Shown: piece by piece, positions 1-49,900 of the stretch
How the letters are laid out: every line of letters starts with the position of its first letter
How positions within the stretch are numbered: position 1 is the stretch's first letter
DNA from: a virus
Lineage: Duplodnaviria > Caudoviricetes
DNA: 64,000 bases
IMG/VR virus record: IMGVR_UViG_3300027969_002497
Location: 1,034-65,033 of that record
Strand: one strand, 5' to 3'
Made by a program: the position numbers and the translations under genes
The notes under the pieces: generated by a model
What the model saw: only the letters and a program-made list of their open reading frames with translations
Databases searched by the model: none
Told to the model about the DNA's origin: nothing

Positions 1-678
1 TGGCGGCTGTGGGTTGGTAGGGGGCTGAGGGGGCTCAGGTTGCACGGGAGGCTCAGGGGGCTGAAGCTTGCACAACTCTTTGAACAGCCAGTCAGCCAGT
101 GCCCATGTTTGCTCGGTGTTAGTGCAGTTGTCTAAGCGCCTGCATGCCTCATCAAACAGGGGTTGCAAGCCGTTAGCCAGTGGCACTTTCACAGTGCCGT
201 GCTTACGTGCATACACTGCGAGCACAAAGGGGTACTGACGGGGGTCAGACCAGTCGGTCACCTCAGCCAAGCCATCGGAGGCCATGCGGTCAATCAACGT
301 GCCGAGTAACTGCTCAACGTTGCCAGTCAGCTTAGCTTTGACTGCGTGGTTCTCAATGAACGCATCCTCAAGGCCGTTGTGCAACTGGAGAATGTAGGCA
401 ATAGCCTTACGGTCAATTGCATTGAAGTTGGTGTATTTCCAGTGCAACAACTCATGCAGGGCAAAGCCTGTATAGCGCTCAAGATCTGCACGGGTCAGCA
501 CTGCGTCATCGGCAATGTTGGTGATGTAGATCTGACCCTGACGGTCAATGGCGGCAGTGGGAATGTCAGCCCGAAAAACAACCTTGACATTGGGCAGTCC
601 GAGGTCAGAGGCAATCTTGTGAATTGCGGCAGTGAGGGCGGGCTTGAATTCCCAACCGAAATATTTTGCTTTGAACAT
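1..678 (-). CDS. CobT/VWA-type partner of the MoxR ATPase, N-terminal part with HEXXH metallopeptidase motif (truncated by window start)
   Basis: Manual translation from ATG at 678 (RBS GGAGAG): MFKAKYFGWEF...GFALHELLHWKYT...LHNGLEDAFIE, then a Pro-rich linker; directly downstream of the AAA+ ATPase. Confidence 0.75.
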   Translation of the reverse strand, partial: MFKAKYFGWEFKPALTAAIHKIASDLGLPNVKVVFRADIPTAAIDRQGQIYITNIADDAVLTRADLERYTGFALHELLHWKYTNFNAIDRKAIAYILQLHNGLEDAFIENHAVKAKLTGNVEQLLGTLIDRMASDGLAEVTDWSDPRQYPFVLAVYARKHGTVKVPLANGLQPLFDEACRRLDNCTNTEQTWALADWLFKELCKLQPPEPPVQPEPPQPPTNPQPP

Positions 679-689
679 TTGTTCTCTCC

Positions 690-2099
690 TTAGAGCCAAG
701 ATTTGATGGCGTTTTCGTTGATGTAAGCGGCCTTGATTGCGTCAAGGGCGGCACGGGACTCAGCGGGTTGCCGAGCGGTAATGGCAGACTGCCAAGCCTT
801 GTCCACACTCAGCACAGACAGGCCGCGAATGAATGCAAGGGCAGAACGAATCGAGGGTGCATCGATGATGTCGCCTGTGTCAACCTTGGCACGGGCGGCA
901 GTGATGGCATCCACTACGTGGCAGGCCAAGGCCTGATGGCAACCAGTGTGTCGAATCAAAGCCTCGACTTCCTGATCACGGGGTAAGAATTCAAACTGCA
1001 CCACATGCGAGAAGCGGTCAGCCAGTGATGAATTCATTTGTCGGGTGCCTGTGTAGCGTCCTGAGGCATCACCATTGGTCAGCGTATTGTCAGCCGCGAA
1101 AACCAAAACACCCTGCGCTCTGCGCTGAGGTTGGCCTCCGATGTTGACGGCACTGTTGACCTCAAGCAGACCATTGAGCGGTGCCAGTTCTCCCGCGTCA
1201 CAGTTGGAAATCTCATCGAGCAAAATCACAGTCGATGGGGAAGTGAACGCAGTCAGGAACGCACCACGTTTAAACACTGTCGCACCATTCTCAAGGCCGA
1301 CAGAGCCGATGTAGTCTTCTGTCGTTGTGTACTTGTGAAAGTTAATGCGGGTGAATGAGCGGCCTGTGCGGGCGGCAAACTGCTTGGCGGTCTCGCTCTT
1401 GCCCGTACCCTTTTCGCCTCCGAACCACAGGTTTTCACCTTTGTTCTGAGCCAACAACAGGTACTCCAAAATGTCCTTAGACCACACAAAATTGGGGTCA
1501 ATGGCGGGTGCATCGGGTGCATTCCACATGTCCACATAGACCTCAAGGCCGTGCACATCGAGCACACTCACACCGAACACATCGAGGGTAGTCTTTTTGT
1601 CAACAATTGTGGCGGCAGTCGCGGAGGCGATCACGTCCTGAGCGCCCGCATCGATCACAGCCTGTTTAAACGGGGCAAAGGCCTTGGCAATGGCGGATGC
1701 CACTTCAGCGGCAACCTTGGTGTCATCGATGCTTGATGAGGCTTGCACCTTGGCGAGTTGGTCAAGGGTGATGCGGATGTTGGACACGTCACCCGCAATT
1801 GCGGCAACCGATCCATCGAGTGCGCGGGTAGCATCGAGACCCTGCAAGGCATAGGCATGGGCACGATTCGCGACAGCTTCAAGGGCGCTTGTATCGACAC
1901 CCGCAGTGGCAACCACAGGGGTAGCATTCTGCACCTGAGCCAAGGTCAGATTGCCTGCATCGATTTGCTCAGCCAACCAAGCGACACGGTCAAGCTTGGT
2001 GTTCAAGTGGGAGGGTGCACCATGGGCAGTGGTTGCACCGACAATTTTACCAACTGGGATTGCCAACAGTTGGTCACGCAAAGTCAAAGGTCTAGTCAT
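690..2099 (-). CDS. MoxR/CobS-type AAA+ ATPase
   Basis: Walker A GEKGTGKS, Walker B ILLDEIS, sensor/Arg-finger region SLADRF, SIR motif; 469 aa. Confidence 0.9.
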   Translation of the reverse strand: MTRPLTLRDQLLAIPVGKIVGATTAHGAPSHLNTKLDRVAWLAEQIDAGNLTLAQVQNATPVVATAGVDTSALEAVANRAHAYALQGLDATRALDGSVAAIAGDVSNIRITLDQLAKVQASSSIDDTKVAAEVASAIAKAFAPFKQAVIDAGAQDVIASATAATIVDKKTTLDVFGVSVLDVHGLEVYVDMWNAPDAPAIDPNFVWSKDILEYLLLAQNKGENLWFGGEKGTGKSETAKQFAARTGRSFTRINFHKYTTTEDYIGSVGLENGATVFKRGAFLTAFTSPSTVILLDEISNCDAGELAPLNGLLEVNSAVNIGGQPQRRAQGVLVFAADNTLTNGDASGRYTGTRQMNSSLADRFSHVVQFEFLPRDQEVEALIRHTGCHQALACHVVDAITAARAKVDTGDIIDAPSIRSALAFIRGLSVLSVDKAWQSAITARQPAESRAALDAIKAAYINENAIKSWL

Positions 2100-2123
2100 T
2101 TTTTCTCTCCTAGGGTACTGGTT

Positions 2124-2738
2124 TCAAGCAAGGGCGAACATGTCACCACAGCGGCATGTTGGAAGTTCTACGTCACCGTGGGCGTTGTATACCCACTTGG
2201 CGGTCATGCGGATCGAGCACTGGCATGTCGGGCATCGGGCAAGCAACATGCGGGTGCCTTGGCTTTTGTGTGAGGCAATGTCAACCTTGGCATGCGGGTA
2301 GATGCCCAGTGAATCGATGATGGCAATGTAGGCGTTGATGAAGTCCTGCCCGTGGGTGACCTCCTTGTAGGGGCTCGACTGTTTGCCTGCGGGGAGGATG
2401 TGCATGGCCTCAGCGACACGCTCATAGGCAAGGTTGGTGACGGTCAGCGCACCCTTGGCAGTGCGGCACAACTGGGCGATCAGAGTCTCGGCAACCTTGA
2501 TCGGGTCAGCGAGGATCGGTGAGATCCAAATTTCATAGTGCCCATCGGCTGAGTTGGTGTTGGGGATGCACTCGCCAAGCACCTTGAAGCCTGAGCGTTT
2601 TGCGTTGGTAGGGTAGCCAGTGGCAACCCGAATTTCAGCGGGCAGTGTGTGCCCACGTGAGGAGAAAAAGGGACGCAGTTCATCGACTGCGGCATTGAGC
2701 CAAGCCTCACGGTTGGCGTGGATAGATGGAAGTTGCAT
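2124..2738 (-). CDS. SprT-like zinc-ribbon protein with a degenerate HExxH motif
   Basis: REAWL...IRVATGYP...GEC...EIWISP...LGIYPHA...TRMLLARCPTC...CRC matches phage SprT-like proteins; start at 2738 after GGAG. Confidence 0.65.
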   Translation of the reverse strand: MQLPSIHANREAWLNAAVDELRPFFSSRGHTLPAEIRVATGYPTNAKRSGFKVLGECIPNTNSADGHYEIWISPILADPIKVAETLIAQLCRTAKGALTVTNLAYERVAEAMHILPAGKQSSPYKEVTHGQDFINAYIAIIDSLGIYPHAKVDIASHKSQGTRMLLARCPTCQCSIRMTAKWVYNAHGDVELPTCRCGDMFALA

Positions 2739-2754
2739 GGATGGTCTCCGAAGT

Positions 2755-2810
2755 GTGGCGAAATTACCACTGCAATGCACTGACTCGCAGTGCATCACGG
2801 TGAAAATTAA
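2755..2810 (-). repeat. Intergenic structured repeat, copy 1
   Basis: GTGGCGAAATTACCAC-TGCAATGCACTG...CAGTGCATCACGGTGAAAATTA; similar to 3145-3198 and 3695-3743. Confidence 0.75.
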
Positions 2811-3124
2811 GGGCAGTTGGCATGCTCACGCAGTGCACCAAGCAGGGTCAGGCCAAGCGCATGCTTGCAAATCACGTCACCCCAATTGCCAAGCGGCTCA
2901 TGTGTGAGGGCAAGCAACAGGTCTTGCCTGTCCTCTTCAGTGCGACTGATAGCACCGAAAAAGAAAAACGCCTGTTGGTAAACAAAGGCCTCACGGGTCT
3001 GCACGTTCCAACGGGTAGCGTTGGGGTACTTGTTGAAGTCATTCTGCGCAGACTTCAGAGTGGCTTTGAGAGTGGCGAGCACCTCGAATGATTGCAATTG
3101 GAAGGTGTCAGTGGTAACGGTCAT
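2807..3124 (-). CDS. Hypothetical early protein
   Basis: 105-aa ORF with AGGA RBS, co-oriented with neighbours. Confidence 0.7.
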   Translation of the reverse strand: MTVTTDTFQLQSFEVLATLKATLKSAQNDFNKYPNATRWNVQTREAFVYQQAFFFFGAISRTEEDRQDLLLALTHEPLGNWGDVICKHALGLTLLGALREHANCP

Positions 3125-3144
3125 GATTTGTCCTATGGGTTGAA

Positions 3145-3198
3145 GTGCGACTTAGCACTGCAATGCACCCGTGTGAGGTGCATCACGCTGATAAGTCA
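3145..3198 (-). repeat. Intergenic structured repeat, copy 2
   Basis: GTGC-GACTTA-GCAC-TGCAATGCACC...GGTGCATCACGCTGA-TAAGTCA. Confidence 0.8.
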
Positions 3199-3387
3199 AA
3201 GCTTGGCCTGTCGACCCCGTATGGCATCGATCTCAGCCCACAGCTTGATGTAGTAGGGGTCATCGGTGGGTAGATGACTGTTCAACTGCAGGGTGACGTG
3301 GCAGTCATGCAGTGCACGGGCACACATGTTGCTGTCGTATTCCGCAAACTTGTTGCGGCACTGGGCGGTCAGTTGGGCGTAGTTCAT
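3196..3387 (-). CDS. Hypothetical early protein (MNYAQLTAQ...)
   Basis: ATG at 3387 overlaps upstream stop (ATGA). Confidence 0.65.
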   Translation of the reverse strand: MNYAQLTAQCRNKFAEYDSNMCARALHDCHVTLQLNSHLPTDDPYYIKLWAEIDAIRGRQAKL

Positions 3388-3512
3388 GCGGCAACCTTTC
3401 TGTTTAAACACTCGTTGTAAGTGCCAGTGTAGAAAATGCGGTAGCCGTTGCGCTCTGTATCGCCCTTGCAAACAATGATGTTGCCGTGGCGGTCAATCTG
3501 TGCGGTGTACAT
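3384..3512 (-). CDS. Small hypothetical protein (MYTAQIDRHGN...)
   Basis: Manual translation, 42 aa, RBS GGGAGAG, coupled to neighbours. Confidence 0.6.
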   Translation of the reverse strand: MYTAQIDRHGNIIVCKGDTERNGYRIFYTGTYNECLNRKVAA

Positions 3513-3514
3513 GT

Positions 3515-3676
3515 TCACTCTCCCTTGTAGTGATGCATGATGGCTTTGCCGATCACTGCTTGATCGTCAAGACTGAGCATGATCGAAGCAAATGAATGCC
3601 TGTTGTTGTGAATCATGATGCGTCTAGCGTTTGCCCATGTGGGGTTCGCTTTGTAGGCGTTGACAAGTTTTTGCAT
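3515..3676 (-). CDS. Small hypothetical protein (MQKLVNAYK...), first early gene
   Basis: Manual translation, 53 aa, RBS AGGA. Confidence 0.6.
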   Translation of the reverse strand: MQKLVNAYKANPTWANARRIMIHNNRHSFASIMLSLDDQAVIGKAIMHHYKGE

Positions 3677-3694
3677 GGTGTGTTCCTAGTAACA

Positions 3695-3743
3695 GTGCGA
3701 CATTGCACTGGTGAACCCCTAGAGGCTCACCGCTGAAATGTCA
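3695..3743 (-). repeat. Intergenic structured repeat, copy 3
   Basis: GTGC-GACATT-GCAC-TGGTGAACC...GGCTCACCGCTGA-AATGTCA. Confidence 0.75.
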
Positions 3744-3883
3744 GCGCCAGTGAAAGACCATCACTGGTAGAAGTAGGGTGCGCACTAGAGAGGTGTTGCA
3801 AAGATTTGCCCTCTCTGACCATCCTTTCGGGGAGGTCTGCCTGTCTTTCCATCGACAGGGTCAAAGCGGTAGGTCTGGAGTGA

Positions 3884-3912
3884 ATTCTGCACTACTTCTA
3901 TTGCCGTGTAAA
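3884..3912 (-). promoter_or_regulatory. sigma70-like early promoter (leftward)
   Basis: Minus strand TTTACA-17 bp-CAGAAT with AT-rich upstream region. Confidence 0.55.
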
Positions 3913-4249
3913 CACCATCAATATTAACCTGACTAAATTGTAGGGTTATTAAATTGTGATGGGTTCTAGGGGTAACTGGCATCGATGCCTAGGGAGGCAC
4001 TGCAAGTGCAAGCTATATAGATATGCAATGCGCTGAGGGCGCTAAGCAAGCCTCATGCCAAGGCTGTTTTTGGCGTAAGTTTCGTGTAAGGTGCGGATCG
4101 ATTAGAGGCTCTAGGAGCGTTTAAATGGGTGTCAAGCCACTACCGCCCTAGAAAATAATTTAAATCGCTTAGCGGGGCTGTAATCGATTCTCGCAAACAA
4201 AAGTACTACAGTTCAAAATGGTTCAGTTTCATAACTAAATGGGGTGGGC

Positions 4250-4306
4250 TGTGGACAACAAATGTATAAATTTAAGTTGTACACAGGCTGTGGATAACTC
4301 TATAAT
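4250..4306. promoter_or_regulatory. DnaA-box cluster overlapping a putative terS promoter
   Basis: TGTGGATAA (4289-4297, perfect), TTGTACACA (4277-4285), TGTGGACAA (4250-4258); TTGTAC-18-TATAAT (4277-4306). Confidence 0.55.
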
Positions 4307-4378
4307 GCGAACAGTTTTGGCTTTGGCGTGATGGGTTTGGTTGGTTGGTTGGTGCTTACTTCAAAAGGGGAATGTGTC

Positions 4379-5047
4379 ATGGGGAAGTCGATGGGTGATG
4401 AGTACAAGGCTTTGTTGGGTGAAGCAATGGCGGGGAAGGGTGATGGGAGCCCTGATGCCGAGGCGGTAGAGCAAGCCGAAGGCGAACGGTTAGCACAGGC
4501 CGCAGAAGCACCAAAGAGACGGAAAGACGGTGAAGCAGTAGGAAGTAAGACACCAAGGGCAAAACCAATGACTCAGTCACAACTGAAATTCTGCGAACTG
4601 GTTATCACTGGGCAAACGTACAGAGCAAGCTACAGGCAAGCGTTCAACAACAACACAGCAAGCGACAGCACAGTCAGTGCAAATGCCAACAAGCTAATGA
4701 GAGACCCAAGGGTCTTCAAGTACATCAGTGACGGTTGGAATGAAACAGTCGAGTACTTGGCAGACGATGTTCAAGCTAGTAGGAGACTGGTGCTCAGGGA
4801 GCTACTGCACTTAGTAAAGGCGGGCAAGCAGGAAGGCACCAAATTGAAAGCGCTAGAACTAATGGGCAAAACCATTGGCATGTTTACACACACTGAAGTA
4901 GCCGAGAAGGTAGAGGTCAGCACCGAGCAGTTACGCAAGGAGCTAGCCAATCACTTGCGCATGCTTGAGCGTGTCAAGCCATCAACTGGTATCACCGATG
5001 CAGACGTGGTGCGCACACTGGAGCGTGTAAACGTGGACGTGGCGTGA
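4379..5047 (+). CDS. terS: Terminase small subunit
   Basis: HTH-like MTQSQLKFCELVITGQTYRASYRQAF...ANKLMRDPRV and KLKALELMGK..GMF motif; upstream of terL. Confidence 0.75.
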   Translation: MGKSMGDEYKALLGEAMAGKGDGSPDAEAVEQAEGERLAQAAEAPKRRKDGEAVGSKTPRAKPMTQSQLKFCELVITGQTYRASYRQAFNNNTASDSTVSANANKLMRDPRVFKYISDGWNETVEYLADDVQASRRLVLRELLHLVKAGKQEGTKLKALELMGKTIGMFTHTEVAEKVEVSTEQLRKELANHLRMLERVKPSTGITDADVVRTLERVNVDVA

Positions 5048-5203
5048 CCCCACCCGTGCCCCGCCCCCACTTGGCACGAGTCGGCACCCGCCCGCGTATT
5101 ACGCTCTAATCCACTCTTCCCAATATCTTCCATTTACAGAACACCCCCCCCTTCACTTCCAAATCCAAAACACCCCCCCTATATATATTTTTCGTTTAAA
5201 CAC

Positions 5204-5232
5204 TTGCGAACGTTCGTATTTGCGTTTAAACT
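5204..5232 (+). promoter_or_regulatory. sigma70-like promoter containing a CGAACGTTCG palindrome and GTTTAAAC sites
   Basis: TTGCGA-17 bp-TAAACT. Confidence 0.6.
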
Positions 5233-5238
5233 AGATGT

Positions 5239-5366
5239 GTTGGGAAAGCGGATGCTGTGCCAGAGTTAGGTCTATTGGTGACATAACTAAAGGGTCTCAA
5301 GGGCTGTTATGAGCAATGCTTGGGACTCCGTGAGTTCGAATCTCACCAGACGCAGCGAGTACCAAC
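5239..5366 (+). ncRNA. Candidate tRNA-mimic structured RNA
   Basis: GTTGG/CCAAC closing stem, perfect T-arm GTGAG-TTCGAAT-CTCAC, two further arms; begins at the predicted +1. Confidence 0.55.
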
Positions 5367-5442
5367 TTATATATGGGGGCGTATTGCGGTTGACGACCGA
5401 ACCTATCGTCTAGTCAGCGCTTAGGGCAGTGCTTCCCCATAT

Positions 5443-5670
5443 ATGACTGAACGCAGAAAGTTAGTGTTGGATTTCATTAGAGCCTACGTACGGTTGTACG
5501 GGGTTCCTCCTTCCTATGAGGTGATCGCCAAGGGGATTGGATTGAAGTCTAAGTCCAACATACACAGAATTATTCATCGTTTAAAAGAGGACGGGCATTT
5601 GAAAACGCAACCTTACAAGTTCCGGGCCATCCAGTTGGTTGATGGGTCCATGACATTTGCTAAGCTATGA
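5443..5670 (+). CDS. LexA-like winged-HTH DNA-binding protein (N-terminal domain only)
   Basis: MTERRKLVLDFI..Y...YGVPPSYEVIAKGIGLKSKSNIHRIIHRLKEDGHL...FRAI matches the LexA DBD; no Ser-Lys protease domain. Confidence 0.8.
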   Translation: MTERRKLVLDFIRAYVRLYGVPPSYEVIAKGIGLKSKSNIHRIIHRLKEDGHLKTQPYKFRAIQLVDGSMTFAKL

Positions 5671-7195: not shown

Positions 7196-9685
7196 ATGAG
7201 CATCGATAAAGCAGTCAACCAAGCACCTATGGGTCTCGACAATTTGATGGATACAGAAGGGTCTGTCGAAATTGAAATCATTAACCCAGAAGGCCTCACC
7301 ATTGGAGTCGATGGCGTTGCAGTGGATCTGCTTCCAGAGCCAGAGGACGAAGGCTTTGATGACAACCTCGCAGAATACATGGACGAGGGCGAGCTAGAGA
7401 AAGTCGCAGGCGACCTGCTTGAGTTAGTGGACACTGACATTACCAGCCGCAAAGACTGGACCGACATGTATGTCAAAGGTCTAGATGTTTTGGGAATGAA
7501 ATATGAAGAACGTACCGAGCCATGGAACGGTGCATGCGGTGTGTTTTCCACCGTACTCACCGAAGCGGCAGTCAGGTTTCAAAGTGAGACTATTATTGAA
7601 ACTTTTCCAGCGCAAGGCCCCGTCAAAACGCAGATTATCGGTGCTATTGATAAACTTAAAGAAGAGGCTGCGGAGCGTGTCAAAGAAGACATGAACTATA
7701 AGCTCACGGAAGGTATGCCTGAGTACCGCCCTGAGCATGAGCGTATGTTGTACTCCTTGGGTCTGGCCGGAGCAGCTTTTAAGAAGGTTTACTACGACCC
7801 CTCACTGGGCCGGCAAGCTTCTATTTTCTTACCCGCAGAAGATGTAATTATTCCGTTTGGCGCTTCTAGTGCGATGACATCAGAGCGCGTGACTCACATC
7901 ATGCGTAAAACCAAAAACGACATCAAGAAGCTTCAAGTGTCAGGCTTCTATTTGGATGTTGAATTAGGTGATCCACTGAATTTCTACACCGACGTAGAAA
8001 AGAAAAAAGCAGAAGACCAAGGCTACACCGTCAATGATGATGGCCGCTACCAGATCCTTGAGATCCACGTGGACTATGACTTGCCCGGCTATGAGGACGA
8101 AGACGGTATCGCTCTGCCTTACGTCATCACCTTAGAGCGCGGCACAAGCAAGATTCTGGCAATCCGCAGAAACTGGCTGGAGGACGATGCAGCTCGGTTA
8201 AAGCGCCAGCACTTTGTACAGTACACCTACGTACCCGGATTTGGTGCTTATGGTCTAGGTTTGATTCACCTGATCGGTGGATACGCCCGCGCAGGCACAT
8301 CATTGATTCGCCAATTGGTGGACGCTGGAACATTGTCTAACTTGCCCGGAGGCCTGAAGACACGTGGCATGCGCATCAAGAGCGATGACACACCAATCCA
8401 GCCCGGTGAGTTCCGTGACGTAGACGTCCCAATGGGTTCCGTCAAAGACAACATCATGACGCTGCCGTACAAAGAGCCATCACAGGTTCTGGCAGGACTG
8501 TTAGATAGGATTACAGAGGAAGGTAGACGTCTAGGCTCCATCGCAGACATGAACATCAGCGATATGTCTGCCAACGCTCCGGTAGGCACAACACTAGCAT
8601 TGCTTGAGCGCCAGCTCAAAACAATGTCGGCTGTTCAGGCCCGTGTGCATTATTCAATGAAGCAGGAGTTTAAACTGCTCAAAGACATCATTCGTGATTA
8701 CACGCCCGGTGAGTATGAGTACGACCCCTCCTCAGGTGACGCACGAGCCAAGCAAGCAGACTACGACATGGTGGATGTTATCCCAGTGTCTGATCCAAAC
8801 TCTGCAACGATGGCCCAGCGGATCATGCAGTACCAAGCTGTTATTCAGTTGGCCCAAGGTGCCCCACAGATCTATGACCTGCCCCAGTTGCACCGCCAGA
8901 TGATTGAAGTGCTAGGCATTAAAAACGCCGACAAGCTTGTACCAATCGAAGACGATCAAACCCCCCGCGATCCTATTTCGGAAAACATGGCATTCCTCAC
9001 AGGAAAGCCAACCAAAGCGTTTATTTTCCAAGACCACGACGCACACATTGCAGTCCACACATCCATGATGCAGGACCCAATGGTGATGGGCCAGATGGGT
9101 CAAAACCCCATGGCCCAACAAATGCAAGCGGCCATGATGGCTCACGTTGCCGAGCACATTGCATTCCAGTACCGCTCTAAGATTGAACAACAGCTCGGAG
9201 CTACATTGCCTGCACCAAACGCCAACCTCAGCGAGCAGGTGGAAGTTCAGTTGTCCAAGCTGGTGGCTCAGGCTGCGGCTCAGTTGTTACAGGTCAACAA
9301 GTCTCAGGCCGCTCAGCAGCAAGCCCAACAGGCCCAGCAAGACCCAGTGGTCCAGATGCAGCAACAGGAATTGGCAATCAAGCAACAAGATGCCCAGACC
9401 AAAGCGCAGAAAGTACAAGGGGACTTGGCTATCAAGCAGGCAGAGCTTCAACTCAAAATGCAGCAAGCCCAAAACCAGCAAGGGGAAGACCCAGTGCTGG
9501 CCGCTCAACGTGTCCAGCAAGAGATCGCTCAGGCAGAGCAATTGCATCAGTCAGAGCTTGCCCGTAAGGAGCAACAACATGCTCAGAGCCTGACCCACAA
9601 CCAGCAAACACAAGATCTGTTGGCTAAACAAAAAATGTTGCAAATGTTACTAAACACAACACAACAACCTAAGAAGGAAGAGTGA
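7196..9685 (+). CDS. Portal protein (podovirus type, Q-rich C-terminal barrel)
   Basis: 829 aa after terL; FKKVYYD, GFGAYGLGLIH, long Q-rich coiled coil. Confidence 0.85.
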   Translation: MSIDKAVNQAPMGLDNLMDTEGSVEIEIINPEGLTIGVDGVAVDLLPEPEDEGFDDNLAEYMDEGELEKVAGDLLELVDTDITSRKDWTDMYVKGLDVLGMKYEERTEPWNGACGVFSTVLTEAAVRFQSETIIETFPAQGPVKTQIIGAIDKLKEEAAERVKEDMNYKLTEGMPEYRPEHERMLYSLGLAGAAFKKVYYDPSLGRQASIFLPAEDVIIPFGASSAMTSERVTHIMRKTKNDIKKLQVSGFYLDVELGDPLNFYTDVEKKKAEDQGYTVNDDGRYQILEIHVDYDLPGYEDEDGIALPYVITLERGTSKILAIRRNWLEDDAARLKRQHFVQYTYVPGFGAYGLGLIHLIGGYARAGTSLIRQLVDAGTLSNLPGGLKTRGMRIKSDDTPIQPGEFRDVDVPMGSVKDNIMTLPYKEPSQVLAGLLDRITEEGRRLGSIADMNISDMSANAPVGTTLALLERQLKTMSAVQARVHYSMKQEFKLLKDIIRDYTPGEYEYDPSSGDARAKQADYDMVDVIPVSDPNSATMAQRIMQYQAVIQLAQGAPQIYDLPQLHRQMIEVLGIKNADKLVPIEDDQTPRDPISENMAFLTGKPTKAFIFQDHDAHIAVHTSMMQDPMVMGQMGQNPMAQQMQAAMMAHVAEHIAFQYRSKIEQQLGATLPAPNANLSEQVEVQLSKLVAQAAAQLLQVNKSQAAQQQAQQAQQDPVVQMQQQELAIKQQDAQTKAQKVQGDLAIKQAELQLKMQQAQNQQGEDPVLAAQRVQQEIAQAEQLHQSELARKEQQHAQSLTHNQQTQDLLAKQKMLQMLLNTTQQPKKEE

Positions 9686-40969: not shown

Positions 40970-43900
40970 ATGTCGATAGCTCGTGTTCAGTTGCCGGACG
41001 GCAGGATTGCTACTGTTGAAATCCCAGACGGACTGTCAATAGAACAAGCACAGACATTACTTAATAAGCAATTTGCTCCTAAACCAGAAGAGCCCGCAAT
41101 TGGGCCTGCTGGTTTCTCATTAAAAGATACAGCCCGTACCGCTCAGCAGGGTCTGTATGGTGGACTGCAATCTTTAACAGACATATTTGGCGCTGGTAAC
41201 GTAGCTTCCAAAGAGCTTACAGAGCTTCAGCAAGAAGCCGCAGGCAAAATGTCAGAAGAGCGTAAGGCTGAGATTGCCCGACGTGAACTGCTTAAAAAGA
41301 AAGCTGAAGGCGATACTTGGGAAGAAATTAAAGCCACTGTGGGTGGCTTTACGGAAGCACCGTTGCAGACGTCCATTGGTGCATTAGCGTCTAGCGTACC
41401 AATCATTGCCAGCGCTTTCCTGCCCGGTGGACAGCCTGCCGCCGCCGCTGGAGCCGCAGGCCGTATAGGGCTGGGTGCAAGAGCCTTAGCCGCCGCTAAA
41501 ACACCAGCCGCAGGCATCGGTGCTTTGATGGGTGTCGGTGGTCAGAAAGGCCAAGACTACCAAGCAGTTAAAGAAGCATTGCTTGCAAAGAATTTTTCTG
41601 AAGCAGACGCAGAAAGACTCGCACAAGAAGTAAGTGGTTACTCACTTGAGAATGCTCCACGTCAATTGGCATCTGGTTTGATGGGTGGCTTAGAGGGTGT
41701 GACGGGTATCGAAGGCTTGCTTGGCCGTGCCGGCAGACTCGGTAAAGCGTTGCCTAAAGTTGAGAAGGCTGTTGATTTGCCTGAGCCAACATTTGGTCAA
41801 GCACTGCGTAAGAACATTCTTGGTGAGGCTGCACCTGAAGCAGCACAGGCCGCTACAGGGCAAGTTGGCACTAACATCGCAATGAATCAGGCCGGTATCC
41901 CAACTGACCTGACATCAGGTGTTGCGGCACAAGTCATCCATGATGCACTGGTCGGTGGAACATTAGGAGCGGCTACATCACCACTCAAGATGCGTGAGAT
42001 GCGTCAAGAGTATGTCAACGATGAGATTGCCCGTAAGCGTGAGGAAGACGCAAAGATTGCGGAAGGCATTAAGAAAGCCGCCGCACAGCGTGAGCAAACT
42101 AAACAGCAGATTGTTGGTGATCAGCCTTTGCTGTTAGCAGGCCCTAGCCAAGAGCTTGAGCCTACTAGAGAAGTTCCTCCTCTTCAAAATCCCATTGGCA
42201 ACCTAAGGCCTGAAGAGCTAGGCCCTGAAGTTACCAGCTACATTAATCAATACCGCAAAGCAAACAATCTTCCGCGTTTAAACACGTACTCTATCGAGGA
42301 CGTCAAAGATGCAATGACTGCGGTCAACCCAGAAGGTGAGAAAGCCGCTCTGGATTCCATCCTTGCCGCCAAGACTGGTTACACCGGTCAACAGACCATC
42401 ACAGCCAAGGATGTGCAGAATGCCGCGATTGAAAAGAACGTTGCTACTGGAACCAAAGGGTTCAGCGATTTCTTAGCCCGGACAACCGGTGTAAACAGCC
42501 TCGACCAGATGTCTGAGCCGCAGCTGTACGCTGCGTTTAAAGCACTGGCTGACATGCCAGCAAACACAACCGGGCAGCAGATTGTTTTACCAGAAGGCAC
42601 TAACGCATCACGGTTTACACAGAAACAATACGACGGCGCAGTTAAATACGTTGGTCTGACGTTCCAAGAAAACAATGGCAAGCCTTTGTCTATTGAAACC
42701 ATTTTGGCTGACATCAAGGACTCAACCAATCTAGCAACTGACCGCGATGCCAAGGCGTTGTTGGATACAGCGATTAACAATGGCGACCTTGAGAAGAGCC
42801 AGCAGGTTGTTTACCGCACGTTTAAACCAGATACAGACCAGCTGGTAGCGACGTACCCAACACGTGAGCGTGCTGAAGCAGCAGCCCAGAAGCAACGTTT
42901 AAATGTACGTGAGGCTACCCTTACCCAAGTTGCCCCTAAGGCTCCTGTTACACCTCCAAAGGCTCCAAGAGCAGGCCTGCCTGCCGGCTATGACATTACA
43001 GAGCGTCAATTCAAAGAAGGTGAACAGCCTGAGGGCTACCAGATTATTTCAGAGGAAGGCGGCAAGCCATTCCCAACAGTCCTAAACCAAGCAGAAGTGC
43101 AGGGGAAGATTGACCAGCTTTCAACAGATCGCAGAGAAATTGCTGACAACAAACTTCAAGAGGTTCTGAAGTACGAGCAAACAGTCAATGAAGGCAAGCG
43201 TGAGCTTGAGAAGATGGAAGCGGCTGGTGAGTTTGACACTGACGCATACAAACAGAAGAAAGCCCGTCAAGCGGCCAAGGAAGACCTCCTAGGTAAGCGC
43301 ATTGAAACCCTCTACAAAGAGATTACGTCACTGACAGCGCCTTTGAAGTCCAAGCCTGTAGGTTCCAAGGCTATAGCCCGTAAAGGCTTTACGGTCACCA
43401 AGGAAGGTAAGGAGTCCGGTACATTCCCCACCCGTGAAGCGGCTGAGGAAAGCATTCTTGCGGGGCTGTCTGATGAGGCATTAGATGCCTTGGTATCTGA
43501 TAAGAAGTTTGGTGGCCTAGCTAACCGTGCGGCGGCTGAACAGAACCGTCGCCGTAGTGCTCCAGCTACCAAAGGTAAAAAGGTTTCTGAAGTACTTAAA
43601 GACCTTGAGTCTGGCCCTCCAATCGCTGAGACACCTGAGCTCCTAGCGAAGACTAAGCCTTTACGTGACATGCTCAACCGCTTTGGTTTGGGTGATGTTG
43701 CCTTAAAGATTGTCAAAGCCATTGAGAACAAAGCCAATGGTTCTTATGCCGGTAAAGTTATTGAGTTGGTTCTTGATTCCAAGCAACCCATACGCACCCT
43801 ACGCCATGAGTCATTGCATGCTTTGAAAGAACTCGGCTTCTTCACTGACGCGCAGTGGAAGTCGCTGGAGAAGATGGCCCGCAACACGTGGAAGCAAAAA

Positions 43901-46900
43901 TACCTTGGCGGTTCTACAGCCCTGCTCAAAGACGGTACAACAGGCACACGCCTGCAAGCCTACGAGGAGATGGGTCTGTCGGAGGCTGACATCCTAGAAG
44001 AAGCCATCGCTGATGCCTTTGGTGACTTTGATGTAAACAAAGCTCCTCCCGGAATGCTGACTGCGCTGCTGAACAAAATGCGTGGTTTCTTTGAAAGTTT
44101 AAACAACTACTTAGAAGGCCGTGGCTTTGAGAATTCACAGGACATCTTTGGTGCTGTTGAGAAGGGCCAGCTAAAAGCCGGCCAAGCTCAGGCCGGCGGT
44201 AAGAAGCTTAGTGTGCAAGCGGCTGAGGAAGGTGAACCTGTTAAGAAGGTTGACCCTAACGACGTTAGCAACATTGTTAACAACAGCCCGTACAAAGACG
44301 CAGGCATTAATGTATTGAACTCACAGATTGAAAAAACTTCTAAACCATTGGAAGTCGATGATGTGGGGGTATTGTTTGACAGCGCCTACAAGGCAGAGTT
44401 TGGCAAACAAGGTGATTGGCGCAACCCCGCTGACTTTAAACGAGCCGTTGTTCAGGCGGTTGATGAGTTACAAGTTCAGTTGCAACAGGCTAAATCTGGC
44501 CTAGACTGGTACGACGAAGATATTGCCAAAGCTTTTGAATTAACTCAGCGTTCTATACCCAGTTTAAAGAAGCCTGAAAAACGTGCTTTGTTCTCAGTGA
44601 TTGCTGGGATTATGTCTCCTAGCACCAACGCCCGAGACAACTGGGTCATTGCCGCGCAGGCCTATCAGCACTACGAAAAAACTGGTGTTCTTCCCGGAAC
44701 TAACCCTGCAACAGGTGGCCTGTGGATGGGCGGTTTGGAATCAGCAAACAAGAAAAAACAGTTAGACATGCTTAACGCAATGTTGCAACCTAAGTCCAAA
44801 GGTGGTTTGGGTGAAAAGGGTGCTGTTGAATGGTTGCAGGGTAGCCACACAGTTGCAGACATTACCAAGTTGCGAGCACAATACGGTGGCATGGGTAAGT
44901 CTAATGTTGGCGGAAAAGCAACAGATGTTCTGCCCGGCTTTACCGCCTTTGGCCCCAAGGTTGGTCCATTTGTAATGAATATAAATGGCATTCATGAGGT
45001 CACAGTTGATGTGTGGATGACACGCACATTCAACAGATATTTTGGACAGATGATGGGGCCTGATGGTAAGATGGTTCGTGCCCCAACAGAGCCACAGCGT
45101 GTTGCAATTAAAAATCTTGCAGTGTTAGCGGCACAGCAACTGGGCATTAAACCGTATCAGGTGCAGTCTGTTCTTTGGTTCATGGAACAGCAGATATTTA
45201 ACAAGCTTGGAACAGGAGCAAAGAGCTATGGCTTCAGCGACGGCGCAGTCAAATTTAGCGAAACGCAAGGCGGAGTTGGTGGAGCAAAAGTGCCTCCTGC
45301 AAACAGCGGCTCTAATGCGGTTGCGAACCAACCAACCGGACAGCAAGCTGGACGAGCTGGCGTTCAAGCGGGTCAACCAACAACTAGAACAACTCAGCAA
45401 GGAGTAGACAATGCAACAGGACGCAAACTTCCCGTTGGACAAACTGCCGTTCGATCCGGCACAGGAGGCCGGAAAAAGCTCTCCGTCCAAGCCGCTGAGG
45501 AGGGACAGCCCGAATCAGCCGGAGACCGAAGAGGACGGAATCAGGGCAGAGGCCTTACGCCGCTTGCAGGTGCGCCGATTATTTCAGGGGCAACGGGGCC
45601 AGACCCAAGGATAGTCCAAGTCGCAGAGGACTACGCAAAGCAGTATGAAATTTCATACCGCAGGCAAGCAGTCTATGCTGAAATTGATGAGGATTTTTCC
45701 AAGCTAATCGCTGATGCCTATGAGGCGATGCCTCATGCCCCACAGGATCCTAAGGTCAAAGAGGCCTACCAAGATCTGATGCGACAAACTAGGAATCAAT
45801 ATGATGCCTTGGTTGACGCGGGGTATTCCTTTACATTCTTTGACAGCAACACCGACCCGTACGCGGGCAACCCGTTTAACGCAATGCGTGACTTGCGTCA
45901 AAACCAACAGATGGCTGTGTATGGAACCTATGATGGTTACGGCACTGACGGCATTACTGGAGCAGCCGTTGAAGACAACCCTATGTTGGAAGATACCGGT
46001 CTGCGTTGGCCTGACCAAGACGGTGTGGAGCATATGGTTACAGCTAACGATCTGTTCCGCGCTGTGCATGATGCCTTTGGTCATGGTTTAGAAGGGGCAG
46101 GCTTCCGCGCCCAAGGTGAAGAGAATGCATGGCAAGCACACGCACGTTTGTTTACAGGCCCTGCTGTGGGGGCTATTACTAGTGAAACTAGAGGGCAAAA
46201 CAGTTGGCTTAACTACGGCCCATACGGTGAAAAGAACCGTACCGCCAAACTTGAAGATACTGTTTTTGCTGAGCAAAAAACTGGGCTGTTGCCTCCTTGG
46301 ACATGGCAAGATAGGCTTGTTGATGACGAAGGCTTGGTGCTGGGTGTTCAACAACCTGACGCAATCAGCATTAAAGGTTTGCATTACGGCAAAGCCCGTG
46401 TAGCAGAACTTGACTCATCTAAATACGGTACAGGTCTTCGTGGTGCTGAGCGTCGCAGGCTTGAGCAAACTGATGATGAACGCATTAAAAAGCGTGTGTA
46501 TTTTTACGTTCAAAAGCCAGACGGCTCAACACCATACCCAGAGTCCGGGGTGGGTCCATACGTTTACACACAACAATTTGACAATGTGCTGGGTTCCGGC
46601 CCAACCATGAGCCGTTTATTTAACGAAGCCAATGGCGACTCCAACAACTTTGAGAGCTTAGTGGTAGACGCTGGCTACGATGGCTACGCTGTGCCATCTA
46701 TGGGCATGATGGTTATTTTGAACCACAACACCCCAGTCAAGTACAAAGGCACACGGTCTGAGTTAACAGACAATCAGAAAAAATTCAGTTTAAGTGAAGC
46801 CCCGCCAAATTCTCTTTTAACAAAGAGGATGAGTAATATCGGTATTAAATCTACCGATGATTTCTGGAAGCGCATTCAAAATGTGATGATTGGAACTGGA

Positions 46901-49900
46901 TCTAGAAACCCATCATTGGGCGCGGCACTTGATACCACCAGTACTTCTGATCAAGTAAAACAAGCAATTTCTGTGTGGAAACAAGATGTTGCAGCATCCG
47001 GCATTCAAAGCTATTTGCAAAGGTTTAGGATACAAGGTGCAGTACCTGAGCTTGATGATGTGATTGCAGGCCCACCATCGGTGAAAAAAATGCTCCTTGA
47101 AGCTGGCATAAGGCCTACATTAGGGAACGCTATAGCCGCATACAACTCATTGCCACAAAGTGCTGTTAATGATGTGCGCTACAGCCTCCGTGAAGCGCCA
47201 GACACACCTGAGTTTAAACGCTTCTTTGGCCGCAGCGGATTTATCAACAGCGCTGGCGAACCAATGACGATGTATCACGCAACTGATGCAGACATCACTG
47301 AGTTCCGAAGCTCTGAAGACGGCAAGCTGGGCGCTGGCATTTACATGTCATCAGTTCCAGACTATGTCACCCAGTACGCCCCCGAAGGCAACGTGATGCC
47401 TTTGTACGCTAGTGCTCAGAATCCATTCATTCTGAACATCAGCGGTGATGCAATTAAAACCTTGTCAGAAACTCGCAGAGCTTATGGCATGGGTATCGGC
47501 CAACAGATGGAAGCCGCAGTCTCTTTGCTGACGCAAGGTAAAAAGCGTTTAAAGGATCTTTCAGGCCAGCAGGTACAGAACTTGTTTAAACGCAACGGTT
47601 ACGATGGCATTCTGGCTCGTGACGACGCCGGGAACATCATCGAAGCTAACGTGTTTAAACCAGAGCAGGTCAAGTCTGCGACCGGTAACGTTGGAACTTA
47701 CAGTCCAAAGAGCAAAGACATCCGTTACAGCTTGCGTGATGCAACCGACATGTTTGCCGGCAAAGAACTTGAGAAAGCTTCCAAGACTGAGTACAAAGGC
47801 CGTTACAAGCTAGTCAACATGGACATTGATGACTTTATGAAGTTGTCAAAGGTGGCTGGTCAAGATGCCGGAGCCCAAAGCAGGGCTGATGCAAGGGTAC
47901 AAGCCGGTACACCATTTACCACCGTGCCTCATTTGTACGTAGATCCCGATGGTACTGACTTGCGTGTTACCGGACATGACGGTAGACACCGCGCACGTGC
48001 TTTGAAGAAGGCCGGCTACGATACCATGCCAGTCGAATTGCGTAGCATGATTCGTTGGTCTGAACAAATTGACCCTGAAAGTTCTGATTACCGTGAAAAC
48101 TGGCCTGAGCGTATTTATGCTGAGGAAGGCGCTCTGCGTGAAGGTGCATCTATTGAAATGCCAGTCACCCGCGAGCAGTCTCCTTTAAACTACCAAGCGC
48201 CAACTAAGAAGTTCAGCGTCCGTAGCGTAGAAGATGCGATCAAGGCTATGCCTAACGGTGACAAGATCCACCAAGCGGTTGCCGGTAAGACTACCGCCCG
48301 TGAAGAGAAAAGCATTGCCCGCCGCATTCTGGATGCTTTTGCAGGCGACAGCATTGCCTCACTGCGTCAGCAAGCATTGAACCGCTACAACCAACTGAGC
48401 GTCTATGACAAGCGTCTGGCCGACCAAATGGGTGGTAAAGCGTTGCTTGCAGACTCCAGTGCTGAAGCCGCTGCTTTGCTTTCCGACACTGCGTCCGGTG
48501 TGGCTGCCGCCGCATTTGGTGTAAACAACATTGGCGGTGCGCCGGTCTACAGAAACGGTGTAACGGTCGTTGACAACTTTGACGGTAAAGTCAAAGGACT
48601 CATGGACATCCTCATGCCATTGGCTGAGTTGAAAGACCCATTTGCCTACCGCGCATTCCAGTTCTATGCCGCGTCTAAACGGGGCTCACGCTTTGAAGCC
48701 GACGGCAGAGAGAAACTGTTTGACAAAGACGACCTTGCCTATGCAGCGCAGTTGGAAGATCAGTACCCAATGTTTAAACAGGTGCACGCAGACTGGATCA
48801 CATACAACAACAAGCTCGTAGATTACATGGTCGCTACTGGCATCATCAGCAAAGGCAAGGCCGCTGAGTTTACCAAGTACGCTGATTACATTCCGTTCTA
48901 CCGTCAGCTAGAAGGTGAGGACACCATCGGCCCCAAGGTCTTCCAAAGCATCTCAGGTGTCAAGGCCCCTAAAAAACTAAAAGGGGATACTGACGCACCG
49001 CTTGCCGACTTCATGGAAACCATTGTTCGCAACACCCAGTCGATCATCCAAGCCGGCATGAAGAACACTGCCGGCCAGAAGGCGGTTGATGTTGCCCTGC
49101 AGTTAGGTGATGCTGAGTTACTGGAAAAACAGTCTAGCGCTCCCGGAACTGTGACCATCATGCGTGATGGTGAATACAAGTCATACGCAGTTGCTGATGA
49201 ACTGTTCATAAACTCAGTTAAGAGTTTAAACATGCCAGATGTGAAGCTCTGGGGCATCTTTGCTGGCCCGGCTGGTTTACTGCGTAGCATGGTTACCAAA
49301 GACCCCGGCTTTATGTTAGCCAACTTGTTGCGTGACTCCATGTCAGCCTACGTCACTAGCGGTGTCAAAATGACTCCTATTGCTGACACTGTGGCTAACT
49401 TTGGCCGCGCTCTTGGTGGTAAAGACCCAACATACCAAGCACTGGTAAAAGCCGGTATCTTGGGTGGATACGACTACGCCCAAGGTGTTGAGAAGAGCGG
49501 TGCGCAGCTTACCGCTGACCTACGTAAGCGTACAGGCAACCAAACACTGAGTGAGAGGGCTCAGGACGGCTTTGGCTTGTGGAGCACCTTAGAAAAGGGA
49601 ACCTCTGCGTCTGATGCCGCTACCCGTATGGCTGTTTACAACCGTGTCCTTGAGGACACAGGCAATGAAGCTGAGGCGATCTTCCGCGCCCTTGAGGTGA
49701 TGAACTTTAACCGCAAGGGTGCAAGCCCTATTGTGCGTTTGTTGACTGCCGCCATTCCGTTCCTGAACGCCCGTATGCAGGGCTTGGATGTGTTCTACCG
49801 TGCAGGCATTCAGCCGTTCTTAGACAAGAACCCAACCGACCGCGCTAAGGCTGTACAGAAGGCATTCTTCACACGGGGCATGTACCTGACATCACTGAGC

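Follow-up and report, generated by a model that had tools for sequence, protein, structure and literature searches.

The element described here occurs three times on the minus strand of a 64,000-nucleotide stretch of viral DNA (Duplodnaviria; Caudoviricetes), positions 1,034 to 65,033 of the IMG/VR record IMGVR_UViG_3300027969_002497. This stretch, called the window below and used for all coordinates, makes up nearly all of the 65,033 base pairs (bp) of the record. Judged by comparative sequence analysis, the element is a cis-acting structured segment of polycistronic mRNA, which fills spacers between cistrons and also the leader before the first cistron. Its comparative support is unusually clean: 167 distinct sequences, covariation in all three helices and a constant placement relative to a stop codon and a ribosome site. 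The design is interlocked: one hexamer serves both as a strand of the lower stem and as the loop of the next hairpin, which makes the element a concrete candidate for a two-state RNA. By analogy with the RNase III sites of phage T7, it is tentatively read as a processing and insulating signal (estimated probability about 0.4).

Location and parts of the element

The three copies were located in two ways. A regular expression, the span of which runs from UCA(G/C)CG through the end of hairpin H2, matched exactly three full copies in the 65,033-bp genome (window 2755-2803, 3145-3191 and 3695-3736). The same three were found by a covariance model, built partly from the window's own copies, at 2750-2812 (45.2 bits), 3142-3200 (68.5 bits) and 3692-3745 (68.7 bits), the next-best match in 64 kb having an expectation value (E) of 1.9. 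A first-pass annotation of this DNA had reported a three-copy element at these places, and both searches returned exactly its copies.

In the sense of the mRNA, the element consists of strand A (6 nucleotides (nt), at the stop codon), the linker UCAGCG, hairpin H1, the dinucleotide CA and hairpin H2, a 4-bp GUGC/GCAC stem whose 6-nt loop A′ pairs with strand A. The order given in that annotation (stop codon, UCA(G/C)CG, hairpin, CA, GUGC-loop-GCAC, ribosome-binding site, ATG) can be read on the minus strand in all three copies. The complementarity that it had seen between the loop and the segment at the stop codon amounts to 6 bp each in copy 2 (GACUUA/UAAGUC) and copy 3 (GACAUU/AAUGUC). In copy 1 it is weaker, as had also been noticed: UAAUUU pairs with the 8-nt loop UAAUUUCG by four A-U pairs only. 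The parts are listed below, with open reading frame abbreviated as ORF and amino acids as aa.

Copy 1
2755-2809, minus strand: whole element, stop codon through H2 (45.2 bits), between the 105-aa ORF and the SprT-like 204-aa gene
2804-2809, minus strand: 5′ strand of helix A, UAAUUU, holding the stop codon TAA (2807-2809) of the 105-aa ORF
2798-2803, minus strand: conserved linker UCACCG
2772-2798, minus strand: hairpin H1 (G2798 to C2772), 11-bp stem in the predicted minimum-energy fold
2755-2770, minus strand: hairpin H2, with GUGG at 2767-2770, loop UAAUUUCG at 2759-2766 and CCAC at 2755-2758
2736-2749, minus strand: Shine-Dalgarno word GGAG (2746-2749) and ATG (2736-2738) of the SprT-like gene

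Copy 2
3145-3198, minus strand: whole element (68.5 bits), between the 63-aa ORF and the 105-aa ORF
3192-3197, minus strand: 5′ strand of helix A, GACUUA, 6/6 pairs, with the stop codon TGA (3196-3198) of the 63-aa ORF
3186-3191, minus strand: conserved linker UCAGCG
3160-3186, minus strand: hairpin H1, predicted fold
3145-3158, minus strand: hairpin H2, with GUGC at 3155-3158, loop A′ UAAGUC at 3149-3154 and GCAC at 3145-3148
3122-3134, minus strand: Shine-Dalgarno word AGGA (3131-3134) and ATG (3122-3124) of the 105-aa ORF

Copy 3
3695-3743, minus strand: whole element (68.7 bits), in the leader before the 53-aa ORF
3737-3742, minus strand: 5′ strand of helix A, GACAUU, 6/6 pairs; TGA (3741-3743) ends a doubtful micro-ORF
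3731-3736, minus strand: conserved linker UCAGCG
3710-3731, minus strand: hairpin H1, predicted fold
3695-3708, minus strand: hairpin H2, with GUGC at 3705-3708, loop A′ AAUGUC at 3699-3704 and GCAC at 3695-3698
3674-3687, minus strand: Shine-Dalgarno word AGGA (3684-3687) and ATG (3674-3676) of the 53-aa ORF

Copies 1 and 2 thus begin at the stop codon of the upstream gene, in agreement with the earlier description. For copy 3 the same had been argued from a micro-ORF (MVFHWR). This frame exists (3741-3761, ATG at 3759-3761) and has no Shine-Dalgarno word before its ATG; the argument built on it is weak. Leader copies in relatives mostly lack an upstream ORF.

In copy 3, CGCUGA at 3741-3746 offers the linker a second pairing partner (window 3731-3746, minus strand). 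In the predicted minimum-energy fold of this copy, the UCAGCG/CGCUGA hairpin replaces helix A, a competitor that only the leader copy has. By eye, a degenerate fourth copy (TCAGCG ... TTGCAGTGCC) could be suspected on the minus strand at about 3985-4040, but the covariance model did not recognise it and it was dropped; the stretch is either a decayed copy or chance.

Homologues and distribution

Homologues were collected by protein, by pattern and by model. With the SprT-like protein as query, 18 related loci were found among viral contigs, and 16 of them (L002-L017) carry the motif; no copy was found in L018 and L019, where the SprT-like loci have 31% identity. The conserved words alone (TCAGCG ... 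CAGTGC N6 GCAC) matched 122 times, in 119 loci of viral contigs. Of these matches, 26 have a hexamer that pairs with the loop at 5-6 positions and a central stem of at least 5 bp; the others look like chance. By simple arithmetic, a six-of-six complement between strand A and the loop is expected by chance in about 0.3% of cases. A covariance model made from 41 distinct copies (alignment A1) returned 112 hits, 82 of them distinct, in 48 sources, and 148 further hits in 78 metagenome stretches that had been retrieved with the commonest motif subtype. The total came to 167 distinct full-length sequences from viral and metagenome contigs, with 58 combinations of strand A and loop, nearly all of which form 5-6 pairs.

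Copies occur in arrays (five in L138; four each in L070, L140 and L212), and complete relatives hold one to four copies each, always in one cluster. Phage 023Pt_psg01 (MW574966.1), the nearest named relative by terminase, has no copy. When prokaryotes, with one genome for each species, were scanned for the GACAUU-type element, 0 stretches were returned, a result that is uninformative on the host. Two complete, GC-richer phages of 48 kb carry one or two copies (L033 (G005), 7370-7421; L086 (G006), 2677-2729 and 3434-3486). The window's terminase and MoxR ATPase gave no match in these phages, and the ORFs next to their copies differ as well. The motif is therefore not tied to one lineage or to one neighbouring gene, which suggests either transfer between phage lineages or reliance on a shared host factor.

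The copy that precedes the SprT-like gene forms a subclass of its own. Its linker is UGACUG or UCACCG, its H2 stem is GUAG/CUAC or GUGG/CCAC with a loop of 8 nt, and its helix A is rich in A and U. The subclass was seen at the following place.

About 3925-3983 or equivalent, in L006, L009, L010 and L014: SprT-preceding subclass, just before the SprT-like gene

The first-pass annotation had recognised no named family and had pointed to Rfam as the check; the whole window gave 0 matches to Rfam 15 at the gathering score. When the limit on E was relaxed to 10 for 2600-4350, mir-33 matched twice and Yar_3 once, and these matches were taken as chance. Literature searches returned no description of the motif; a catalogue of more than 10,000 candidate phage RNAs (PMC10690425) may include it.

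Covariation and predicted fold

Pairing was scored in three alignments. In A1 (MAFFT, 41 distinct sequences, chosen by pairing thresholds), 97.9% of the cells were paired compared with 75.0% in shuffles, and both sides had changed at 6/6 pairs of helix A, 9/10 of H1 and 1/4 of H2. In A2 (made with the model, 82 distinct rows), the value was 96.0% compared with 71.2% after shuffling and at most 48.3% with slid partners, with both-side changes at 6/6 helix-A pairs and 10/10 H1 pairs. The four pairs of H2 were kept in 160 of the 167 distinct sequences when the parse allowed loops of 6-8 nt. Compensated variants of H2 were found in 25 of the 167 (GUGG/CCAC 13, GUAG/CUAC 5, CUGG/CCAG 4, GUGU/ACAC 2, AUGC/GCAU 1), so that this hairpin covaries at three of its four pairs. 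The earlier impression that the central hairpin changes in sequence and keeps its pairing is borne out by the covariation of H1, and the proposed structure as a whole by compensatory change in all three helices across 82 to 167 distinct homologues.

The strands of helix A and H2 interleave, each helix with compensatory change; on this comparative evidence the topology is that of a pseudoknot. G-U pairs far outnumbered A-C pairs (195 vs 13 in A2, 149 vs 4 in the third alignment, A3), from which it follows that the fold belongs to the mRNA-sense strand and not to a DNA cruciform. The conserved positions cluster in the linker, above all at A12, in the CA junction and in H2, and the stop codon keeps its third-position A; the sequences of helices A and H1 are free to vary. 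Two additional pairings were considered and not adopted. Pairing between positions 13-14 of the linker and 50-51 of H2 at first resembled three-way covariation; in the larger set the compensated cases belonged to the SprT-preceding class and many haplotypes were uncompensated, and it was not counted; the pairs C11-G and A12-U, which would extend the long hairpin, had no support from covariation.

For copy 2, the predicted structure of minimum energy is the nested fold, with H1 enclosed by A/A′. With the pairs forced, it was on average 3.4 kcal/mol (standard deviation 1.4) more stable than H1 plus H2 with strand A free, and was favoured in 98% of 155 sequences, 12 of the 167 having been dropped for poor parse. 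H2 alone was calculated at about -3.5 kcal/mol and the A/A′ duplex at about -3.3 kcal/mol, in a nearest-neighbour model that cannot score a pseudoknot. H2, which covaries as well, is predicted either to compete with the nested A/A′ and H1 fold or to knot it.

Relation to stop codons, ribosome sites and gene cassettes

In 69 of 88 distinct contexts, a frame that is open for 25 codons or more comes to its end 2-12 nt ahead of the linker. Fifty-two of these 69 ends share one offset, at which the last two bases of the stop codon are the first two of strand A, and TGA, TAA and TAG all occur as the stop at helix A. The other 19 contexts are mostly first copies, in the operon leader. On the downstream side, a Shine-Dalgarno-like word and a start codon follow H2 in 83 of the 88 contexts, the former mostly beginning 4-10 nt (up to 15) after H2 and the latter 12-27 nt after it, most often 17-18. 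A ribosome with a stop codon in its A site covers about 9 further bases of mRNA in its channel; one terminating at the element would span strand A and the linker, with H1 at the channel entrance.

The ORFs between the copies vary among relatives. In 45 related loci, p105 was found in 5, p63 in 8, p53 in 18 and p42 in 23, and the motif in all. Locus L002 has p63, one element and SprT, and the window has an additional 105-aa ORF and element. Contigs of related phages (four runs at 85% likeness, hence weak) diverge at 2809, 3139, 3198, 3694 and 3744. The four belong to a set of eight RNA sequencing runs, all with shares of 0.23 or less and all in the form of assembled contigs, in which RNA ends cannot be seen; they yielded no start or end of a molecule, and gaps in their coverage carry no meaning. 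A scan of 2600-4400 for promoters and terminators gave two promoter-like and two terminator-like sites, none inside the elements and not above shuffles; within the elements, no promoter-like hexamers or U-tracts were found.

Genome context

From 4.3 kb on, the plus strand encodes both terminase subunits (small and large), the portal and proteins of the virion structure; a 1868-aa protein with an endosialidase-chaperone domain and a 3271-aa polyvalent protein are among its products. The nearest named terminases, at about 56% identity, are those of phage 023Pt_psg01, phage DSL-LC04 and the Pelagibacter phages HTVC027P and HTVC023P; megablast of window 1-5400 against a phage collection gave no match. 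Divergent from the plus-strand genes, an operon on the minus strand begins at about 3.9 kb and extends to the left end of the window in the order leader, 53-aa, 42-aa and 63-aa ORFs, 105-aa ORF, 204-aa SprT-like gene, MoxR-type AAA ATPase and CobT/vWA-like gene. The first three ORFs are linked by overlapping stop and start codons, and the small ORFs adjoining the elements had no Pfam match. The tail of the operon (window 1-2738, minus strand), with the SprT-like gene (204 aa), the MoxR-type AAA ATPase (469 aa) and the CobT/vWA-like gene, is kept together in most relatives.

No RNase III domain was found in the window's genome by a family search in which the controls gave matches. The corresponding search for the T7-type RNA polymerase family also gave no match, but its control was silent too. 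A 3271-aa ORF (window 40970-50785) with ART-PolyVal, LPD38 and DUF7178 domains encodes a polyvalent protein; no polymerase family was among its Pfam hits, and the idea of hairpin promoters of the N4 type was dropped on these grounds.

Direct repeats with the palindrome GTTTAAAC (TTTTCGTTTAAAC / TTTGCGTTTAAAC) lie at window 5189-5231, 1267-1285 and 3397-3409. Two repeats of the GTTTAAAC type are placed about 200 nt upstream of a gene for a 75-aa protein (5443-5670) that consists of a LexA-type DNA-binding domain only, and the palindrome repeats may be operators. Two further direct repeats of 24 nt, 29 nt apart and each with a terminal run of seven C, are located at 5127-5179, between the small terminase gene and the LexA-like gene.

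Proposed function and alternatives

The reading as a processing and insulating signal would work as follows. While the stop codon is free of ribosomes, A/A′, H1 and the internal loop, in which UCAGC faces CAGUGC, would stack into an irregular hairpin of about two helical turns, and a host endonuclease, most likely RNase III, would cut the conserved loop on its 3′ side. The upstream mRNA would then end in H1 as a 3′ protective hairpin about 9 nt past the stop codon, a distance at which a terminating ribosome need not melt it. The short A/A′ duplex would dissociate, and GUGC-A′-GCAC would fold at the new 5′ end, a few bases before the downstream ribosome site. Each small gene would in this way become a separately stable and translatable unit regardless of its neighbours, which fits an operon whose genes are swapped at the elements. 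The proposal would account for selection on both A/A′ and H2 and for the leader copy, and cutting by a host nuclease would account for the motif in unrelated phages and for the result of the RNase III domain search in the window's genome. A published precedent for dividing long phage messages is given by hammerheads clustered around phage genes (PMC3088659).

Several points weigh against this proposal. Helix A and H2 can also coexist as a pseudoknot, which would be no plain double-stranded substrate for RNase III, and covariation cannot separate simultaneous from sequential folding of the two. Tertiary contacts or binding of a protein could explain the strong conservation of UCAG and GUGC/GCAC just as well, and the position of the stop codon within helix A may be mere genome compaction. 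The lower stem has only 6 bp compared with about 9 bp predicted for the T7 sites, and there is no sequence likeness to the T7 internal loops. The figures themselves are also affected: the A1 percentages are inflated by the way its rows were chosen, A2 and A3 were fitted to the model's A/A′ and H1 pairs (A2 not to those of H2), and many of the sequences come from one phage lineage, so that the counts are not independent events.

A static, ribosome-gated pseudoknot is the strongest of the alternatives, although we consider it unlikely. Here A/A′, H1 and H2 would coexist and all 6 nt of the loop would be paired, as in kissing loops; a terminating ribosome would melt helix A, by which standby access would be altered or the stop held by the next start; neighbouring cistrons would be coupled or insulated without a cut. 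The interleaving of helix A and H2, both covarying, would be explained directly. Fully paired loops are feasible, as in the TAR kissing complex and the pistol ribozyme, and the arrangement required here, with linkers of zero length, is nevertheless sterically demanding. The stop lies in strand A in 69/88 contexts with all three stop codons and at least five offsets, H2 ends 4-10 nt before the Shine-Dalgarno word, and H2 is kept in leader copies that have no upstream ORF, which fits its formation without a ribosome on strand A. On the other hand, those leader copies work without upstream translation, and the downstream genes have strong ribosome sites of their own. The Shine-Dalgarno word and start codon of the next gene are unpaired in the predicted folds, so that there is no obvious inhibitory structure to unfold; the version of a translation-coupled switch suggested in the first-pass annotation, if it implies a hidden ribosome site, is not upheld, as the element does not sequester that site in these folds. 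Published work on operons points both ways: according to one review, rpmI and rplT are coupled through unfolding of RNA by the upstream terminating ribosome across a +52-nt spacer, and structure just after the stop codon is correlated negatively with coupling (PMC12548453).

A binding site for a protein, such as a translational repressor of phage or host, an RNA chaperone or a factor modifying RNA polymerase, is considerably less probable. The UCAG linker and the GUGC/GCAC stem would be recognised on a covarying scaffold, and a conserved linker and H2 beside variable helices A and H1 are the typical pattern of an operator on an RNA scaffold. The leader pseudoknot of T4 gene 32, mentioned in PMC10690425, offers a precedent for such regulation in a phage. 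The distribution of the genes speaks against it: no protein co-occurs with the motif in all lineages (SprT-like in 32/45 loci, MoxR in 26/45, p42 in 23/45), the terminase and MoxR ATPase are unmatched in the 48-kb carriers, and the small neighbouring ORFs offer no Pfam match.

More improbable still is a new class of small self-cleaving ribozyme, a possibility raised in the first-pass annotation. UCAG(C) and (C)AGUGC would form the core at a three-helix junction, tied by the pseudoknot to the stop-codon region, and the operon mRNA would be cut into single-gene messages with a 5′ hairpin before each ribosome site. The fold is compact, packing three covarying helices, a pseudoknot and a junction of about twelve nearly invariant nucleotides into about 55 nt; the occurrence in unrelated phages implies that it may need no specific partner, and ribozyme arrays flanking phage genes are known (PMC3088659). 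Set against this are the low prior for any new class, the absence of an Rfam ribozyme match on 2600-4350 even with E relaxed to 10 (hammerhead, twister, twister-sister, pistol, hatchet, hepatitis delta virus-like and hairpin families) and the freely variable loop of H1, which argues that this loop makes no tertiary contact.

Least probable is a linker that acts in recombination at the level of DNA only, for the swapping of cassettes, with no function as RNA: the genes between elements do differ among relatives (L002 compared with the window), related contigs diverge at the element borders (weak evidence, at 85% likeness) and the stem-loops of T4-type phages treated below are a precedent (PMC2839356, PMC4122927), but such a linker needs identity and not compensatory change, 58 different A/loop pairs stay complementary, and the G-U to A-C ratio of 195 to 13 points to selection on the fold of the sense-strand RNA. 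Recombination is more likely a by-product of a conserved element.

If the processing and insulating signal is real, it would show how phages express shuffled genes independently of their neighbours and would provide a compact natural part for synthetic operons. If the element were instead self-cleaving, it would represent a new ribozyme class and a natural 'insulator part'.

Comparison with known systems

In the T7 record, the spacers 0.4/0.5, 0.7/1 and 1.2/1.3 and the leader before 0.3 (63-80 nt) were folded and gave a lower stem, an internal loop and an upper stem of 9-10 bp. The stop of gene 0.4 falls within the 5′ strand of the lower stem and that of gene 0.7 two bases before the stem, and the ribosome site follows closely downstream of the hairpin. 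We take these hairpins to be the RNase III sites R0.5, R1, R1.3 and R0.3, presumably those of Dunn and Studier 1983, cut on the 3′ side of the internal loop; the feature table of the T7 record carries no annotation of them. Like the T7 signals (R0.3, R0.5, R1, R1.1, R1.3), the motif is present in several copies per operon, one of them in the leader, and otherwise between cistrons, with the end of an ORF in or at helix A in 69/88 contexts and a ribosome site soon after. Its predicted long-hairpin state would likewise have a lower stem, a conserved internal loop and an upper stem of about 10 bp. Unlike in T7, the lower stem shares its 3′ strand with the loop of the conserved H2, which is absent from the T7 sites.

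Clustered hammerheads in phages and prophages (Perreault et al. 2011, PMC3088659) are placed on the flanks of one gene or a short block of genes and were proposed to cut long transcripts into gene-length mRNAs. The motif resembles them as a repeated small structured RNA that flanks varying genes of a phage operon, and differs in having neither a hammerhead core nor a match to an Rfam ribozyme. The promoter-early stem-loops (PeSLs) of T4-type phages (PMC2839356, PMC4122927) combine a promoter with a terminator-like stem-loop and act on DNA and transcription. As with PeSLs, conserved motifs of about 50-70 nt bound small variable ORFs, with gain and loss of genes at the motif; unlike PeSLs, the motif has no promoter-like hexamers or U-tracts and is under selection on its RNA fold.

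The T4 gene 32 leader pseudoknot (PMC10690425) and rpmI-rplT (PMC12548453) resemble the motif in that a structure able to form a pseudoknot precedes a ribosome site in the mRNA of a phage or an operon. Both are single sites serving one gene and one binding protein, whereas the motif recurs before unrelated genes and leaves the ribosome site uncovered. The kind of element is thus known from T7 sites, hammerhead arrays and PeSLs, while the family and the interlocked design of helix A and H2 are new.

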